Part shown: positions 900 to 7,257 of the stretch, in pieces | How the letters are laid out: each line of letters starts with the position of its first letter | How positions within the stretch are numbered: position 1 is the stretch's first letter | NCBI GenBank assembly: GCA_044346595.1 | Contig: JBIIYX010000179.1 | Coordinates: 1-17,521, forward strand | Length of the DNA: 17,521 nt | Direction of reading: 5' to 3' | From: Polyangiales bacterium | Lineage (GTDB): Bacteria > Myxococcota_A > Polyangia > Polyangiales > Ga0077539 | Made by a program: the position numbers and the translations under genes | Notes under the pieces: model-generated | Seen by the model: the letters and a program-made list of their open reading frames with translations, nothing else | Databases searched by the model: none | What the model was told of the DNA's origin: nothing

Positions 900-2474
900 A
901 TGCCAATCCTCACCGACGAAGAACGCATCGGGACGACGCTGTCGGGCAAGTACGTGCTCGACTCGGTCATCGGTCGCGGCGGCATGGGCACCGTCTTCGC
1001 TGGGTACCATGCGCTCTCGAGCCGCGGCGTGGCGGTGAAGGTGTTGCATCCGCAGCACGTGCGAGACCCCGTCGCGGTGCGGAGGTTTCTCAACGAGGCG
1101 CGCACAGCGGCTGCGTTTCGCCACGCAAACGTGGTCGACGTGCTCGACGTCGACGTGCTCGAAGACGGCACGGTCTTTCTCGTGCTCGAGCTGCTCGAGG
1201 GCGAGACGCTCGGAGAGCTGCTCAACCGGGTGGGACGGCTGCCTGTCGCCGAGACGTTGTCGATCGTCGTTCCGGTGCTGCGCGCGTTGGCGCACGCGCA
1301 TCGGATCAACATCGTTCACCGCGACCTGAAGCCGGACAACATTTTTCTCACGCCCGGCGCAAAGTGCGCGTTTCCGATCATCCTCGACTTCGGCATCGCC
1401 AAGATGCTCGACGCGCCCGAGCAGAGCATCGAGACCGTCACCGGCACCATCATCGGCACGCCGCAGTACATGGCGCCCGAGCAAGCGCTGGGCAGCAGCG
1501 AAAACACCGCGCAGCTCGACGTCTACGCGATGGGCGTCGTGTTGTTCGAGTGCCTCGCCGGCGTTCGCCCCATCGACGGAAACAACCCCGCCACCGTGCT
1601 CGCCAAGCTCGTCACGGGGCAGGTCCCGACGTTGATTTCGGTCGCGCCCGACGTCTCGCCGGGCATGTCCGAGATCACCGCGAAGGCCCTCTCGACCGCG
1701 GCGCGCGATCGTTTTGTCACATGTGACGATTTCGCCGACGCGCTGCTCGCCGAGGCCAGCGCGCTCGGCGTCGCCGTCCCCATGCCGCAGCCAGGAGACA
1801 AGCTCTCGGGCGGCGAAGGCGCGCGCACCCAGCGGCTCCGCGCGATCACCGACGGCTCCGCGCGCCGCGCGATCGGCAAGCGCCGCTCCGAGCCTCCCAC
1901 GCCCACGCTGGGCGAGCACGAGCTCGCCGAGGCGCGCGCGAGCATCGCCAACTCGACCCCGTACGACGGCGTCTCCCGGCCGAACAGCACGCAGAGCACC
2001 ATGGCGCCCACGACCGCGCAGCGCGCGGTGCGCACGACGCCAGCGTCGCTGCTCGGCGCGGTGCTCGCGTTCGTCGTGGTCGGCGTCGCTGGCGTCGCCA
2101 CCATGCGACGCGAGCCAGAGCCGCAGCAGAGCGTTCGCTCGCCCACGCTGCTCGCCTCGAGCGCCGCGACCAACACCGCCGCGCGCACCAACGCGCCTGC
2201 GGTCTCCGACACGGTCGCTGCGCAAGCGACGGCAGCGCCGCAAGCGACCGTCGATGCGGGCGCGCCGTCGACGCCCACGGCAAACGCGCGGCGCCCAGGA
2301 CGGCAGCCCTCCACGAACGCGCTGTCCGCCAACGGCAGCCCGGTCGCCGCAGCACAAGCGGCCACCGCGCCCACGGTGACCTCTGCTCCGTCGACGCCCG
2401 TTGCGCAGCCCTCGACGCCGACTCGCGCGAGCAGCGGCCAGCAACGCCCCCCTGAAGTGACCAATGTCTGGTAG
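900..2474 (+). CDS. Hanks-type Ser/Thr protein kinase with a single TM helix and an Ala/Pro/Thr/Ser-rich low-complexity extracytoplasmic tail.
   Basis: Kinase motifs are present: GRGGMGTVF (Gly loop), AVK (VAIK-type Lys), HRDLKPDNIFL (catalytic loop), DFGIAK (DFG), GTPQYMAPE (APE). A TM segment ASLLGAVLAFVVVGVAGVATM follows the kinase domain, then a long A/T/P/S-rich tail. The track start is GTG 861. I prefer ATG 900 because codons 861-899 contain rare A/T-ending codons (agt, gtt, tct) unlike the body. Confidence 0.9.
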   Translation: MPILTDEERIGTTLSGKYVLDSVIGRGGMGTVFAGYHALSSRGVAVKVLHPQHVRDPVAVRRFLNEARTAAAFRHANVVDVLDVDVLEDGTVFLVLELLEGETLGELLNRVGRLPVAETLSIVVPVLRALAHAHRINIVHRDLKPDNIFLTPGAKCAFPIILDFGIAKMLDAPEQSIETVTGTIIGTPQYMAPEQALGSSENTAQLDVYAMGVVLFECLAGVRPIDGNNPATVLAKLVTGQVPTLISVAPDVSPGMSEITAKALSTAARDRFVTCDDFADALLAEASALGVAVPMPQPGDKLSGGEGARTQRLRAITDGSARRAIGKRRSEPPTPTLGEHELAEARASIANSTPYDGVSRPNSTQSTMAPTTAQRAVRTTPASLLGAVLAFVVVGVAGVATMRREPEPQQSVRSPTLLASSAATNTAARTNAPAVSDTVAAQATAAPQATVDAGAPSTPTANARRPGRQPSTNALSANGSPVAAAQAATAPTVTSAPSTPVAQPSTPTRASSGQQRPPEVTNVW

Positions 2475-3486
2475 CCCGACTCGCCCGCGCGCGCGCCTCG
2501 TGACGGCGCTCGGCGCGCTCTTGTTCGTGACGCTCTCCACGCGCGGCGCGCACGCTCAACAATCTCCCGATGCGTCGCGCACCAGCGCCGCCGCTGCGCA
2601 GTCGAGCGCCCCCGTCGATCCGACGGTGCGCGAGGCGCGCGCTGCGTTCGAGCGCGGCATCGAAATGTCCCAGCAAGAGCGTTGGGGCGAGGCGCTGGAC
2701 GCGTTTCGACGGTCGTTCGAGCTCGTCCCGCGGCCGAGCACCGCGTTCAACATGGCCTCGACGCTCGTGCGGCTCGGCCGTCACGTCGAAGCCGTCGCCG
2801 CGTACGAACACTACCTTCGCCTCGCCAACCCGACCGCCGAAGGAGCTCGCTTCACCGACGCGCAGACGCAGCTCGCCGCCGAGCGCGCGATGGTCGCGAC
2901 GCTCGAGCTCTCGATCGCGCCCGAGGGCGCCGAGCTTCGTCTCGACGGTCGACGGGTCGAAGGCCCCCTCGCCCAGCGCGCGCTCTCGGTCGACCCCGGC
3001 TCGCACACGATCGAAGTGAGCGCCGCGCGCCACCGGGCGTTCTCGACCACCGTGCGCGTCGCGAGCGGCGAGCGAAGCCCCGTGCGCGTGAGCCTCGAGG
3101 CCATCACGACCGCGCGGCTCGAAGTGCAGTGCACGGTGCCTGGCGCGGTCGTCACCGTCGACGGCGCGCCCTTCGCGCTCGGAGGCCGCGAGGTCGGAGC
3201 GGGCGCACACGAAATCAACGTCACCGCCGCGGGCTACGAGCCCTTTCGACGGCGCGTGACGCTCGCGCCCGAGTCCACGCTGCGCGTCGACGCCTCGCTC
3301 ACGCGGGTCGTGGTCGTGCGTCCGCTGCACGCCAACCCGCTGTTCTGGGTGGCGATCGCCGGCGGAACCGCGGTCATCGCGACGAGCGTCGTGCTCGGCG
3401 TGGTGTTGAGCGGGCAAGCGCCAGAGTTCGCGACGTCCACGGGCATCACGATTCAAGCGCTCAGCGGCGGGGCTGCGCGGTTCTGA
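2464..3486 (+). CDS. Signal-peptide protein with a TPR-like helical region, two PEGA domains and a C-terminal TM anchor; partner of the upstream kinase.
   Basis: N-terminal signal MSGSPTRPRARLVTALGALLFVTLSTRGAHAQQ. TPR-like repeats (WGEALDAFRRSFELVP...HVEAVAAYEHYLRLANP). First PEGA motif 'IAPEGAELRLDGRRVEG', second 'VPGAVVTVDGAPFALGG...AHEINVTAAGYEPF'. C-terminal hydrophobic helix LFWVAIAGGTAVIATSVVLGVVL. The ATG at 2464 overlaps the kinase stop (2472..2474) by 11 nt, indicating translational coupling. Confidence 0.8.
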   Translation: MSGSPTRPRARLVTALGALLFVTLSTRGAHAQQSPDASRTSAAAAQSSAPVDPTVREARAAFERGIEMSQQERWGEALDAFRRSFELVPRPSTAFNMASTLVRLGRHVEAVAAYEHYLRLANPTAEGARFTDAQTQLAAERAMVATLELSIAPEGAELRLDGRRVEGPLAQRALSVDPGSHTIEVSAARHRAFSTTVRVASGERSPVRVSLEAITTARLEVQCTVPGAVVTVDGAPFALGGREVGAGAHEINVTAAGYEPFRRRVTLAPESTLRVDASLTRVVVVRPLHANPLFWVAIAGGTAVIATSVVLGVVLSGQAPEFATSTGITIQALSGGAARF

Positions 3487-3662
3487 GCGCGCTCAGAGGG
3501 TGTTGAATTGGAGATGACTCGCGGACTGCCAAGAGACGCGAGTCGGACAAGTAATGTCCGCGCAGCAATACTGGAGGTATTGCAAGCGGGCATGACGCAG
3601 GCCGGCGACGCGGATCTGCCGCAGGCCGCAGTCAGATCCAGTTCAACACCCTCTCAGCGCTC
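3484..3662. repeat. Lower-GC structured inverted-repeat element (MITE-like, sRNA, or bidirectional terminator module) between convergent genes.
   Basis: 24-nt arms 3489..3512 (gcgctcagagggtgttgaattgga) and 3637..3660 (tccagttcaacaccctctcagcgc) are 22/24 complementary. They enclose ~125 nt containing three clean hairpins: 3516-3523/3537-3544 (8 bp), 3544-3549/3555-3560 (6 bp) and 3565-3571/3577-3583 (7 bp). A 12-nt perfect palindrome tgagcgcgctca at 3484..3495 overlaps the + gene stop. The right arm overlaps the stop codon (3654..3656) of the minus gene. GC is clearly lower than the flanks. Confidence 0.5.
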
Positions 3663-5417
3663 GCCGGTGCGGGCGCGGACGCGGGCGACCTCTCGCGAGA
3701 AGATCCTGCGCAAGATGGCGGACGCGCAGCCGTAGGTGCTCTCGACGCCGAAGTAGCTCAGCGATTTGGACAGGAGCTCCTGCCGTCGCGAGTACGGCGT
3801 ATCCGAGGCGTAGTGCACGATCCCGAGCTCGAACGGGACCGAGTTGGACAAGTGCACGATCGTGTCTGCCGGGTGGCGATCGGGAAACGCCATCTCGAAG
3901 ACGGCGCTCAAGTACGGCCCGGCTTCCATCTCGAGCACGGTGTATCCGTCGCGGTAGTACCGGCCCATGTAGTCGCGGTTCTGCAAGAACGCGCTGCGCA
4001 CGGTGAGCGCCTTCTGGCCGTCGAGCACGGTCCCGCGGCGCATGAAGGGCTCGAGGTCCGACGCGGTGAACGCGTTGCGAAACAGATAGCGGTTTCCCGA
4101 GTGCTCATCGAAGACCGTGTCCGAGAGCATCACGTCGCCGACGCGCCCGTTGAGGGTCGCGGCCTTGCCCATCACGTACACGCCGAGCAGCTCGCTCGCG
4201 CCTTGCGTGAGGCGGGTGAGCAAGTGATACGCGGCCATTCCGAGGGGATAATCGATGTTGAGCACGACGGCGTCGCTCTGCGCGAGCAGCTCGACGCCCG
4301 GGACGCGCACGCGCGGATCGAGCCGGTCGGGGCGCAGCTTCGCGAGGTCGACGAGCTGCGCGCTGACGTCCACTTTGCCTGGGCTCGGAACGGTGCGCAC
4401 GCCCGACTCGGCGTCGAACTGCTGCACCTGCAGCAAGAGCTCTTTGGTGTCGACGTCCGCCTCGTGAAGCCACGCGCGCAAGAGGTAGTACGAGAGGTTC
4501 GAGAGCGTGTCCTCGTCGCCGCCCTCGAGCGCTTGCTCGACGACCTCCGCGAGGCGCTCGGGGTTCTTGCGACGCACGAACTCGACGATCGAGTCGCGGT
4601 GCGCCCGCGCGTAGCCGCCGACGAGGTTGAGCACCGAGTGCGTGTTGGACGAGACGAAGTAGATCGGCGGGCGCTTCGGCGTGCTCTCGCGCACGTATGC
4701 GGGCTCGATGCCGCTGAACCACCGGTGCGCCGCGCGCTGATAGCCCGTGTACGTGGTCGACAGCACGCGGAGCTTCAAGTCGCTCTCTCTCGCGACGATC
4801 GCGCGCAGGCCAGCGTCGAGCTGATCGCCGAGCGCGGCGCGGATGGTCGCGATTCCGCTGGCGTCGAGCCCGAGCAGCGCAGAGAGCTCGGCGTCGTCGA
4901 TGTCGAGCGGGTCCTCGGCAGGAGCGCGCGCGATGGCGCGGCCGAGGGCGCTGTGCGCGAGGCGGTCGTGGAGCTTGTTCCACTCGATCTGGTAGGCGGT
5001 CACGATCGGGATGAGGTCGTCGAGGTCGCTGGTGCTCGTGAGAAACACCGCGAGCATGTCCGCGCCGTTGTGCCGCAAGGGTCTCCTGCGGCCGCGCGTG
5101 CGGACCTCGGCCCAGTCGCGCACCTCGAGTCCGATGGCCTCGAACTGCTCGTGCGACTGCCCGAGCACGATGCGCCCGATCGCCGGCATGCACGCGGGCA
5201 AGCGCGCCGCCGCGTACGCAAACGCGGCCACGTCCGGGACGCTGTCCCGCGCGCCGAGGTGCAGCGTCGAGTCGCTGAACGCGTGCGTCTCTTCGAAGGC
5301 GCGAACACGCACCTCGCCGGTGCTGCGCAAGAGCGAGTAGTACGTTCGGATGTAGAGCTCGACGCCGTCGCTCGCGGCTTCGAGCGGCGCGTTGGTGTTC
5401 GTGGGTCGGTCCGTCAT
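3654..5417 (-). CDS. Hypothetical two-domain protein: unknown ~330-aa N-terminal region plus a C-terminal nucleoside phosphorylase family-1 (PNP/UDP/MTAN-like) domain, possibly a nucleosidase.
   Basis: The C-terminal part carries the three hallmark PNP_UDP_1 motifs. 'VVLNIDYPLGMA' corresponds to VVLMPGDPLRA of DeoD. 'GKAATLNGRVGDVMLSDTVFDEHSG' corresponds to GSAGGL...VGDIVVSDEARYHD of Pfs. 'VLEMEAGPYLSA' corresponds to VEMEAAA. The track ORF starts at 5471, but the first 18 codons have poor GC3 (gga, cct, cgt, cca, tca), so the ATG at 5417 (MTDRPTNT...) is preferred. The domain assignment is by motif memory, not a search. Confidence 0.7.
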   Translation of the reverse strand: MTDRPTNTNAPLEAASDGVELYIRTYYSLLRSTGEVRVRAFEETHAFSDSTLHLGARDSVPDVAAFAYAAARLPACMPAIGRIVLGQSHEQFEAIGLEVRDWAEVRTRGRRRPLRHNGADMLAVFLTSTSDLDDLIPIVTAYQIEWNKLHDRLAHSALGRAIARAPAEDPLDIDDAELSALLGLDASGIATIRAALGDQLDAGLRAIVARESDLKLRVLSTTYTGYQRAAHRWFSGIEPAYVRESTPKRPPIYFVSSNTHSVLNLVGGYARAHRDSIVEFVRRKNPERLAEVVEQALEGGDEDTLSNLSYYLLRAWLHEADVDTKELLLQVQQFDAESGVRTVPSPGKVDVSAQLVDLAKLRPDRLDPRVRVPGVELLAQSDAVVLNIDYPLGMAAYHLLTRLTQGASELLGVYVMGKAATLNGRVGDVMLSDTVFDEHSGNRYLFRNAFTASDLEPFMRRGTVLDGQKALTVRSAFLQNRDYMGRYYRDGYTVLEMEAGPYLSAVFEMAFPDRHPADTIVHLSNSVPFELGIVHYASDTPYSRRQELLSKSLSYFGVESTYGCASAILRRIFSREVARVRARTGER

Positions 5418-5590: not shown

Positions 5591-6118
5591 ATGGGTTTCG
5601 ATCCGAATGGTGGGCAAGGCGGACAAGGCGGCCAAGGCGGCGGATGGCCTTCACCCCCACAGCAGGGCGGCGCGTGGGGACAACCGCAACCACAGCAAGG
5701 CATCGCGCCGTACCAGCAGCAACAGGGCTACCCACAGCAACAGGGCTACCCACAGCAGCAGGGCTACGCACAGCAGCAGGGCTACCCGCAGCAAGGGCAG
5801 TTTGGTCAGCCGCAGCAGCAGTGGGGCGCGCCGCCGCCGATCAACATCATCGTTCAGAACACCAACCAGAACACCAACGTCGCGATGGGCGGCGGCGGGT
5901 TCGCGTACCCGCCAAAGTCCAAGACGACCGCGCTGCTGCTCGCGATCGTGCCGGGGCTCTTCGGGCTGTGCGGATTTCACAGCTTCTATGCAGGCAAGCC
6001 GATGACCGGGTTGCTGCAGCTGTTTACGCTGGGCGGCTGCGGCGTCTGGCATCTCATCGACGTCGTGACGCTGTCGATCGGCAGCTATCGAGACAGCAAC
6101 GGTCAGCCGTTGGTGTGA
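5591..6118 (+). CDS. TM2-domain membrane protein with an N-terminal Gly/Gln/Pro-rich low-complexity (prion-like) region containing (QQQGYP)x4.
   Basis: The C-terminal 'LLLAIVPGLFGLCGFHSFYAGKPMTGLLQLFTLGGCGVWHLIDVVTL' matches the TM2 domain pattern: two TM helices, a G-[HD]-[RS]-F-Y-[LA]-G motif and a G-[IV]-W-x-[LI]-[IL]-D motif. The N-terminus MGFDPNGGQGG is shared with the downstream paralogue. Confidence 0.85.
   Translation: MGFDPNGGQGGQGGQGGGWPSPPQQGGAWGQPQPQQGIAPYQQQQGYPQQQGYPQQQGYAQQQGYPQQGQFGQPQQQWGAPPPINIIVQNTNQNTNVAMGGGGFAYPPKSKTTALLLAIVPGLFGLCGFHSFYAGKPMTGLLQLFTLGGCGVWHLIDVVTLSIGSYRDSNGQPLV
5717..5788 (+). repeat. Four tandem in-frame 18-nt repeats (cagcaacagggctaccca and variants) encoding QQQGYP.
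   Basis: Units at 5717-5734, 5735-5752, 5753-5770 and 5771-5788. The first two are identical and the others differ by 1-2 nt. Confidence 0.8.
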
Positions 6119-6408: not shown

Positions 6409-7257
6409 ATGGGATTCGATCCGAACGGTGGTCAGGGTGGCGGAGGCTGGCCGCCTGGCGGTGGTGGCGGCGGTGGACAGGGAGGATGGCCTCCCCCCGG
6501 TGGCGCTCCGCCCGCGCAGGGTGGTGGCTTCAATCCGACGCCGCCCGCGCAGGGTGGCTTCGGTGCGCCTCCGCCCGCACAGGGTGGCTTCGGCGCTCCT
6601 CCGCAGGGGGGTGGTTTCGGTGCGCCTCCGCCCGCGCAGGGCGGCTTCGGTGCGCCTCCGCAGGGCGGCGCGTTCGGCGCTCCGCAGCAGGGTGGCTTCG
6701 GCGCTCCTGCGGCCGCTCCGCAGGGCGGCTTCGGCGCGCCCGGCGGCTTCGGCGCGGCGCCCGGCGGCATGGGCATGGTCCCCGCGGGCGGCGGCTTCGG
6801 CGCGCCCGGCGCGATGTCGCCCGGCGGCGTGAGCGACAAGGACCAGGCCACGGCGTTCTTGCTCGCGGCGTTCTTGGGGACGATGGGCGCGGACCGCTTC
6901 TATCTCGGTCAGACCAACCTCGGCATCGCCAAGCTCCTCACCGGTGGAGGCTGCGGCATCTGGGCGATCTACGACCTCGTCATGATCGGCATGGGCAAGA
7001 TGCGCGACGCGCAGGGACGCGCGCTTCGCACCGAGCCCATCGTCGGGACGCCCACGCGCCAGCAGTCGACGGCGTTCTTGCTCTCGTGGCTCGGCGGCTT
7101 CTTCGGTGCCGACCGCTTCTACCTCGGCCAGACAGGGCTCGGCATCGCCAAGCTCCTCACTGGTGGAGGCTGCGGCATCTGGTTCTTGATCGACTACATC
7201 ATGATCGGCATGGGCAAGATGAAGGACGCCCAGGGCAACTCGCTCCTCCCGGAGTGA
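6409..7257 (+). CDS. Paralogous protein with two tandem TM2 domains and an N-terminal Gly/Pro/Ala-rich low-complexity region ((PPAQGGFGAP)n).
   Basis: Two TM2 units: 'ATAFLLAAFLGTMGADRFYLGQTNLGIAKLLTGGGCGIWAIYDLVMIGMGKM' and 'STAFLLSWLGGFFGADRFYLGQTGLGIAKLLTGGGCGIWFLIDYIMIGMGKM'. I take the start as ATG 6409 rather than track start 6298. The encoded N-terminus MGFDPNGGQGG is identical to the upstream paralogue's, and the DNA is near-identical. A strong SD 'aggagga' (6393..6399) lies 9 nt upstream. Confidence 0.85.
   Translation: MGFDPNGGQGGGGWPPGGGGGGGQGGWPPPGGAPPAQGGGFNPTPPAQGGFGAPPPAQGGFGAPPQGGGFGAPPPAQGGFGAPPQGGAFGAPQQGGFGAPAAAPQGGFGAPGGFGAAPGGMGMVPAGGGFGAPGAMSPGGVSDKDQATAFLLAAFLGTMGADRFYLGQTNLGIAKLLTGGGCGIWAIYDLVMIGMGKMRDAQGRALRTEPIVGTPTRQQSTAFLLSWLGGFFGADRFYLGQTGLGIAKLLTGGGCGIWFLIDYIMIGMGKMKDAQGNSLLPE
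6541..6690 (+). repeat. Tandem ~30-nt (27-30) in-frame repeats ccgcccgcgcagggtggcttcggtgcgcct encoding PPAQGGFGAP. A degenerate continuation runs to about 6800.
   Basis: Units at 6541-6570, 6571-6600, 6601-6627 and 6628-6657, then increasingly diverged copies (GGFGAP repeated about 10 times at protein level). Confidence 0.8.

Follow-up and report, generated by a model that had tools for sequence, protein, structure and literature searches.

We analyzed a 17,521-nucleotide stretch of DNA from a Polyangiales bacterium (contig JBIIYX010000179.1 of assembly GCA_044346595.1), referred to below as the window, and found a structured segment between two convergent genes, at positions 3496-3653, that we interpret with a probability of about 90% as a transposable element of the miniature inverted-repeat type (MITE) inserted into a C-TCA-G site between genes whose stop codons lay 6 bp apart. 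MITEs are 50-500 bp long, have terminal inverted repeats (TIRs) as well as direct repeats, are richer in AT than their hosts, fold into stable stem-loops, and are mobilized in trans (PMC10969869). The original prediction, made from the sequence of the window, had described a 175-bp element with inverted arms and three hairpins and had offered three explanations for it, namely a MITE-like insertion, a structured small RNA or riboregulator, and a shared bidirectional terminator module. The first of these was borne out by dispersed copies, a target-site duplication, and precise empty sites. The odd structure is thereby fully explained and can be taken off the list of candidate riboregulators.

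Structure of the element and empty sites

The element comprises 158 bp without coding capacity and is too short for any transposase. It runs from GAGGGTGTTGAA to TTCAACACCCTC as a near-palindrome to which no strand is assigned, with the ends GAGGGTG...CACCCTC, and its GC content is 0.60, compared to 0.69 in the remainder of the window. The left TIR (GAGGGTGTTGAATTGGAGATGACT, 3496-3519, plus strand) is 24 nt long and invariant in all four copies of the family, and the right TIR (3630-3653, minus strand) has the reverse complement GAGGGTGTTGAACTGGATCTGACT, which matches the left one at 21 of 24 positions. The target-site duplication that the original prediction had suggested looking for consists of TCA at 3493-3495 on the left and TCA at 3654-3656 on the right, neither of them stranded, and the right copy, which is TGA on the minus strand, serves as the stop codon of a gene encoding a DUF6909 protein.

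This locus is present without the element on three contigs: L189, from another JGI (Joint Genome Institute) assembly; L190 (JAAFIF010000082.1), from a metagenome-assembled genome (MAG) that also carries a copy of the element elsewhere (the L032 locus described below); and L191. In all three, the convergent stop codons are 6 bp apart and exactly 161 bp fewer are found than in the window, corresponding to the element and one copy of the duplication, so that C-TCA-G is single in these contigs and doubled in the window. In the alignment, the empty sites read ...GGCGAGCG CTGAG CGCGCTCAGAACC, and the minus strand of the window reads ...GGCGAGCG CTGAG, followed by the additional AGGGTG...CACCCT CTGAG and then by CGCGCTCAGAACC. 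Over approximately 5.5 kb, the identity to the window amounts to 99.2-99.8% for L189, 95-96% for L190, and 89-94% for L191, and the alignments of these relatives break exactly at 3496/3653. The DUF6909 protein has one 100% identical database entry (P0001, 587 aa) and two 99% relatives, which are encoded on these three contigs, and the P0001 protein is encoded identically at the filled and the empty site. Because a 99% identical strain is without the element, the insertion in the window is recent and polymorphic.

A second polymorphic site is the L032 locus, which has an asparaginase II gene on one side and a gene encoding a 241-aa protein on the other. In three contigs that are 92-94% identical to it (L214, L215, and L216), C-TCA-G occurs once, at the place taken in L032 by TCA, the 158 bp of the element, and TCA again. 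A fourth contig (L217, 98.6% identical to the L032 locus) is filled and ends 23 nt inside the element; its positions 3470-3499 are the end of a Logan contig (SRR27420602), inside the MITE. Such an ending commonly indicates that a repeat has interrupted the assembly. Judging from L217, the element appears to break short-read assemblies, and copy numbers in MAGs are therefore probably underestimated.

The empty sites also settle which of the earlier described features belong to the element. The arms GCGCTCAGAGGGTGTTGAATTGGA (3489-3512) and TCCAGTTCAACACCCTCTCAGCGC (3637-3660), complementary at 22 of 24 positions, the hairpins of 8, 6, and 7 bp, a 12-nt palindrome, and the dip in GC content are all present in the sequence as originally reported. 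A repeat search lengthens the arms to 31 nt at 87% (3489-3519 and 3630-3660), and the arm core occurs at only two sites within the window, with 0.00 expected from shuffled sequences. The reported extent of 175 bp has to be reduced to 158 bp, and the palindrome and the outer bases of the arms, which had been counted as parts of the element, are host DNA that is present in the empty sites. More precisely, each arm has host GCGC and the TCA duplication as its outer 7 nt, and one of the two mismatches between the arms is the middle base of the direct TCA repeat. The palindrome (TGAGCGCGCTCA, 3484-3495, no strand) is composed of the TGA stop of a gene encoding a PEGA/TPR protein, GCGCGC, and the complement of the TGA that originally ended the DUF6909 gene. 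It is unchanged in L189 and L190 and bears one substitution in L191, and since it already exists in these element-free relatives, it lies outside the element.

Dispersed copies

An exact scan with the 18-nt TIR AGAGGGTGTTGAAYTGGA was run over one genome per species (185,579 species, 596 Gb) and returned 68 loci. At 64 of these the match was single, which is about the chance expectation for 17 specified bases, and these single matches were rejected as copies; for example, the match in L004 lies inside a 462-aa open reading frame (ORF; 2559-3947, plus strand), and that in L008 is without a partner. The other four loci carried two inverted matches exactly 142 bp apart, the same spacing as in the window. 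L022, L039, and L056 come from the MAG Polyangiales STL-MYX10, and L032 comes from the MAG Myxococcales bin23 (JAAFIF01). The check for dispersed copies that had been proposed with the original prediction was thus positive: at three other loci, full-length copies share 89-99% identity with the window element, the similarity ends at the TIRs, and the flanks are unrelated. L022 and L039 represent one locus assembled twice (99.7% over 7 kb), and the independent insertions number four including the window, in three assemblies, the L032 copy being in the opposite orientation. They constitute a small family, distributed over the species of the window and a second Polyangiales MAG.

Two of the solo matches, of 18-21 nt, are located in intergenic DNA of lower GC content in two other myxobacteria, an Archangium sp. 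MAG (L016, 2641-2661) and A. violaceum (L045, 6514-6531), the former including CTGAG. No clear second arm was found at either locus, and the products of the neighboring genes are a kinase, a helicase, and an A2M protein, with no transposase among them. These TIR-like matches may be decayed relatives of the element.

Target site and regeneration of the stop codon

The duplications flanking the independent copies are TCA/TCA in the window, TGA/TGA in L056 and in L032, and TGA/TGC in L022. All four copies, together with a singleton metagenome element that forms its own cluster (L185), sit on C-T(G/C)-A-G. In the window, T(G/C)A occurs 336 times and CT(G/C)AG only 18 times, two of the latter being the duplication itself; because CT(G/C)AG is so scarce among T(G/C)A sites, the C and G flanking the target are not due to chance.

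According to Pfam or gene calls, an adjoining gene has the duplicated TGA as its stop codon at all four independent loci. The genes concerned encode the DUF6909 protein in the window, a CDP-alcohol phosphatidyltransferase in L056, a deoxynucleoside kinase in L022, and the 241-aa protein in L032, which is also called in three other assemblies. The proteins are unchanged, since the duplication regenerates the stop; in the window, the duplicated TCA is the complement of TGA. At three of the four loci the stop of a convergent gene is 4-6 nt away. The convergent ends form a short GC-rich palindrome of the type TGA-GCGC(GC)-TCA at window positions 3484-3495, at L032 positions 3326-3335, and at L056 positions 2151-2160; such ends may represent a favored setting for insertion or simply a frequent arrangement of gene ends in these genomes.

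Elements sharing the TIR core

A strict 23-nt TIR pattern gave no matches in JGI metagenome contigs, where the family of the window is consequently absent or rare. A gapped version of the core, AGGGTGTTGAA-N(119-149)-TTCAACACCCT, was found on at least 120 metagenome contigs, with few expected by chance on a rough estimate. Together with the genome copies, these make up at least 128 elements of 137-168 bp on contigs of 36-73% GC; they fall into at least 31 clusters of similar elements that have the 11-nt core AGGGTGTTGAA in common, and the window family forms a cluster of its own.

The largest cluster accounts for at least 65 of the 128 elements and consists of 141-bp elements with the ends CAGGGTGTTGAAAAAC, on contigs of 42-73% GC. 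Several contigs bear two copies, such as L110 (3513-3649 and 5096-5236) and L136 (1515-1655 and 3194-3334). Identical 4-bp repeats flank the elements in 32 of 77 cases, mostly TTAA, CTAA, CTAG, and TTAG, and direct CTAA/CTAA pairs exceed the expectation of a model of TA plus a longer TIR. The 141-bp elements had no Rfam match, and they appear to be an IS5-type MITE that is very widespread and has an unusually broad range of hosts. A further cluster of 144-145-bp elements (at least 10 members, including L078, L094, L099, L123, L139, and L141) shares the end GAGGGTGTTGAAGAA and is flanked by 4-bp AGCC/GGCT direct repeats, not by TNA.

Across the whole set, 39 of 127 elements are associated with a stop codon, compared to 16% of control sites, an excess of about two-fold. 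Survival bias must account for part of this association with ORF ends, given that insertions within genes get lost. Targeting of stop codons is accordingly claimed for the window family only (four of four loci) and not for the superfamily. A bolder view, which we offer tentatively and which could well prove wrong, is that the AGGGTGTTGAA core marks a large superfamily of IS5-like MITEs, cross-phylum and so far uncatalogued, with 3- or 4-bp duplications, within which the window subfamily would home to stop codons, using C-TGA-G at gene ends in GC-rich genomes, and the transposase might represent a new IS5-related lineage. If this were true, the regeneration of the stop would let the window subfamily spread harmlessly into the near-zero spacers between convergent genes.

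A text search of papers for the TIR core retrieved only primers and a Synechocystis CRISPR repeat. The TTCAACACCCT string occurs in papers on the type III-D CRISPR system of Synechocystis, which we take as a coincidence; the CRISPR2 repeat of that system begins with TTCAACACCCT.

Proposed mechanism and the source of the transposase

Insertion at C-TCA-G duplicated the central TCA and restored the stop codon of the DUF6909 gene. Movement of the element would have depended on a DDE transposase acting in trans, which would bind the terminal repeats starting with GAGGGTGTTGAA and make 3-nt staggered cuts at TNA. The ends of insertion sequences (ISs) of the IS1031 group begin with GA or GAG in the ISfinder family tables. 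Judging from the TNA target, a duplication of 3 bp, and ends with GAG, the transposase would probably derive from the IS1031 group of the IS5 family. For this group, a TNA target and an exclusive 3-bp repeat have been described, and one of its members, ISLrh, was inserted at GC-TGA, that is, at a TGA preceded by C as in our family (PMC12016507). Ends that begin with GA(G) are shared with this group. Sister clusters with the same core exhibit the YTAR-type 4-bp repeats CTAG, CTAA, and TTAA of IS5 proper, CTAG being the reported IS5 duplication (PMC10379815). In contrast to the IS1031 group itself, represented by IS1031 and ISLrh, the element contains no transposase gene, and its TIR GAGGGTGTTGAA differs from the ISLrh TIR GAACCTGTCTAGTATCT, which begins with GAAC (PMC12016507).

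Several results weigh against this interpretation of the element and of its origin. Only four independent copies were found, with at most two per assembly, in a scan that required an exact 18-nt TIR. No autonomous element with these TIRs was found in the plasmids, viral contigs, and loci searched, and we can only infer the transposase and the IS family. When 72,556 plasmids were searched by BLAST with the window element and a 141-bp relative, only short chance matches resulted, a tblastn search with the E. coli IS5 transposase InsH against the collected loci gave nothing below E = 1, and a scan of viral contigs gave 21 single chance matches. The TIR bears a short and weak likeness to the E. 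coli IS5 ends GGAAGGTGCGAAYAAG, in the form of a loose GGTG..GAA pattern. None of the TIR pairs at IS-like spacing in approximately 1.2 Mb of loci proved to be a full-length IS. Finally, at the window locus itself, a TNA duplication of 3 bp is indistinguishable from a CTNAG duplication of 5 bp: because CTNAG is palindromic at its outer bases, the locus fits a TCA duplication with a 158-bp element (GAGGG...CCCTC) and a CTCAG duplication with a 156-bp element equally well.

Among the candidates, all of which were rejected as full-length ISs, L061 has genes for a histidine kinase and a regulator inside, L172 has rod-shape-type genes by translation and no transposase-like ORF, and L165 contains a 477-aa ORF that reads by eye like a histidinol dehydrogenase. 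In L210, an AT-rich viral contig, the ORFs between the matches are all short, and the L199 and L209 candidates consist of phage coding sequence.

IS30 and IS3 family elements produce duplications of 2-5 bp, and a MITE moved by a transposase of one of these families, or of an undescribed one, has to be considered as an alternative, possibly with a 5-bp CTNAG duplication and a 156-bp element AGGGTG...CACCCT. No parent IS was found, as this alternative would allow, and a 5-bp duplication suits all five CTNAG-flanked copies no less than a 3-bp one. We nevertheless regard it as unlikely, given the boundaries seen in the sister clusters. In the 145-bp cluster, the 4-bp AGCC/GGCT repeats are located outside the G...C bases, which therefore belong to the element, and in the GAGGGTGTTGAAGATATTC cluster, which shares the end GAGGGTGTTGAA, the flanks of L088 (TAA) and L096 (ATA) outside the G/C bases fit 3 bp and break the 5-bp model. 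A TNA target with an exclusive 3-bp repeat is, moreover, the stated hallmark of the IS1031 group (PMC12016507), and the CTAG, CTAA, and TTAA repeats of the largest cluster with the same core are those reported for IS5 (PMC10379815). An IS3 origin is further opposed by the ends of the element, which are not TG...CA. The 3-bp model is preferred because of these sister-cluster boundaries and because a TNA target with an exclusive 3-bp repeat is known for a described IS group.

Folding of the element and possible RNA functions

Treated as single-stranded RNA, positions 3480-3665 have a predicted folding energy of -112 kcal/mol on the plus strand (z = -10.3) and -97 kcal/mol on the minus strand (z = -7.8), relative to shuffled sequences. 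The three local stems of the original prediction, none of them assigned to a strand, consist of 8 bp (3516-3523/3537-3544), 6 bp (3544-3549/3555-3560), and, in the central hairpin GCAATAC-TGGAG-GTATTGC, 7 bp (3565-3571/3577-3583). All of them were recovered in the minus-strand minimum free energy structure, but the first two (3516-3560) give way to long-range pairs with the right half of the element in the plus-strand and consensus folds. The central hairpin (3565-3583) is the tip of a long hairpin and lies inside a stretch of 26 nt that does not vary among the copies. The consensus of the four copies is one long imperfect hairpin of 58 pairs. Between two lineages, compensatory changes occur at two pairs of this consensus hairpin, including a G-C to A-U change in the long-range helix, and the alternative local 8-bp stem shows one further compensatory change (C-G to T-A). 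Since only two lineages are involved, these represent one or two compensatory events and do not demonstrate selection on an RNA. We infer that the strong hairpin is a by-product of the two inverted ends that make up the element; stable stem-loops and a GC content below that of the host are typical features of MITEs (PMC10969869).

The hairpin could possibly influence the transcript ends of both convergent genes, and a MITE that was co-opted as a bidirectional terminator or as a stabilizer of 3' ends would be in keeping with its high predicted stability on both strands and with its position exactly between convergent stops at all four loci, the spacer at the window locus having been only 6 bp before. 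A role of MITE transcripts as terminators has been proposed (PMC10969869). The element resembles intrinsic terminators in being a GC-rich hairpin between two convergent stops; unlike them, it has no T/U run after any stem, measures 158 nt instead of 20-40 nt, and is mobile and polymorphic. In 3300-3850, a search for a stem followed by a T-run gave no terminator-like sites on either strand. Polymorphism among 99% identical strains leaves no time for selection, of which there is no sign, and the gap between convergent genes is the least harmful insertion site, expected without any function. Co-option thus seems improbable to us, and a bidirectional terminator module as the origin of the structure, which had been proposed at the outset, is not supported, given the missing hairpin with T-run and the element-free strains of 99% identity.

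That the segment is the gene of a structured small RNA or of a riboregulator, the other explanation initially put forward, is very unlikely. The strong predicted structure and the one or two compensatory changes between two lineages speak for it, but the pairing is a trivial result of the inverted ends and the compensatory events are so few. With the Rfam 15 covariance models, neither the window nor nine related loci produced a match at gathering score, and 3400-3750 produced none even at E<=1; no sigma-70-like promoter was found in 3300-3850. The flanking target duplication and the near-identical strains without the element likewise argue against such a gene and for a MITE. A REP/REPIN-type palindrome spread by a RAYT (Y1) transposase, or a terminator module evolved by the host, is hardly credible, as the element is indeed intergenic, palindromic, and repeated, but REPINs consist of two short REP hairpins without target duplication, and a clean TNA duplication, 24-nt TIRs, and precise empty sites were found here.

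Comparison with known elements

As a general class, the prokaryotic MITEs used for comparison were Correia/NEMIS of Neisseria, RUP of S. pneumoniae, ERIC, Chunjie of Geobacter, and the QMITEs of Coxiella. The element in the window is like them in being short (158 bp), non-coding, intergenic, dispersed, and polymorphic, with TIRs, a short duplication, a lower GC content, and a very stable predicted hairpin. It is unlike them in that it belongs to a different sequence family, in that its hosts are uncultured Polyangiales/Myxococcota, and in that the copy number seen is low. The IS630-derived Correia, RUP, and Nezha elements duplicate TA. In the family of the window there is no duplication of a TA dinucleotide, the flanks being TCA/TGA and the empty site revealing 3 (or 5) duplicated bp; relative to Correia, RUP, and Nezha, the duplication is a 3-bp TNA. 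Tourist MITEs of plants, which derive from PIF/Harbinger elements, the eukaryotic relatives of IS5, show a 3-bp duplication of the TNA type with a C-T-N-A-G core in a longer palindromic target; they are eukaryotic and unrelated in sequence, and they provide an analogy for the choice of target only.

A 2024 review of prokaryotic MITEs contains no mention of myxobacteria (PMC10969869), and a text search of the literature for MITEs and myxobacteria yielded nothing relevant. MITEs have apparently been undescribed so far in Polyangiales-like Myxococcota. The element is an ordinary, textbook MITE with unusually complete proof, and no general principle is changed by it. For annotation, it supplies a defined repeat family for Polyangiales-like Myxococcota, one that breaks assemblies, and for the biology of mobile elements it supplies a clean natural pair of states before and after an insertion into a stop codon, with the stop regenerated. 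Points of some interest are the stop-regenerating C-TNA-G target and the existence of many MITE families with the same core, differing duplication lengths, and no known parent, a set that could help to trace the evolution of target choice within the IS5 family.

Host genes at the locus

The insertion point is flanked on one side by the gene encoding the TPR/PEGA-domain protein (2464-3486, plus strand), whose stop codon is situated 6 nt before it and which was also gene-called in L189-L191. On the other side lies the DUF6909 gene (3654-5417, with the ORF extending to 5471, minus strand), which encodes 587 aa (Pfam DUF6909, E = 1e-203) and whose TGA stop was the insertion target. A gene encoding a Ser/Thr kinase is located upstream. 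Both the genes present and the GC content of 69% point to Myxococcota.

Beyond the DUF6909 gene, repetitive DNA occupies positions 5711-5800, 6515-6761, and 6844-7254 of the window. It includes 18-nt tandem units TACCCACAGCAACAGGGC (translated YPQQQG), units of 27-30 nt rich in Pro, Gly, and Ala codons, and two 192-nt copies with 76% identity, and it adjoins genes that are called TM2 and DUF2752 proteins in relatives.

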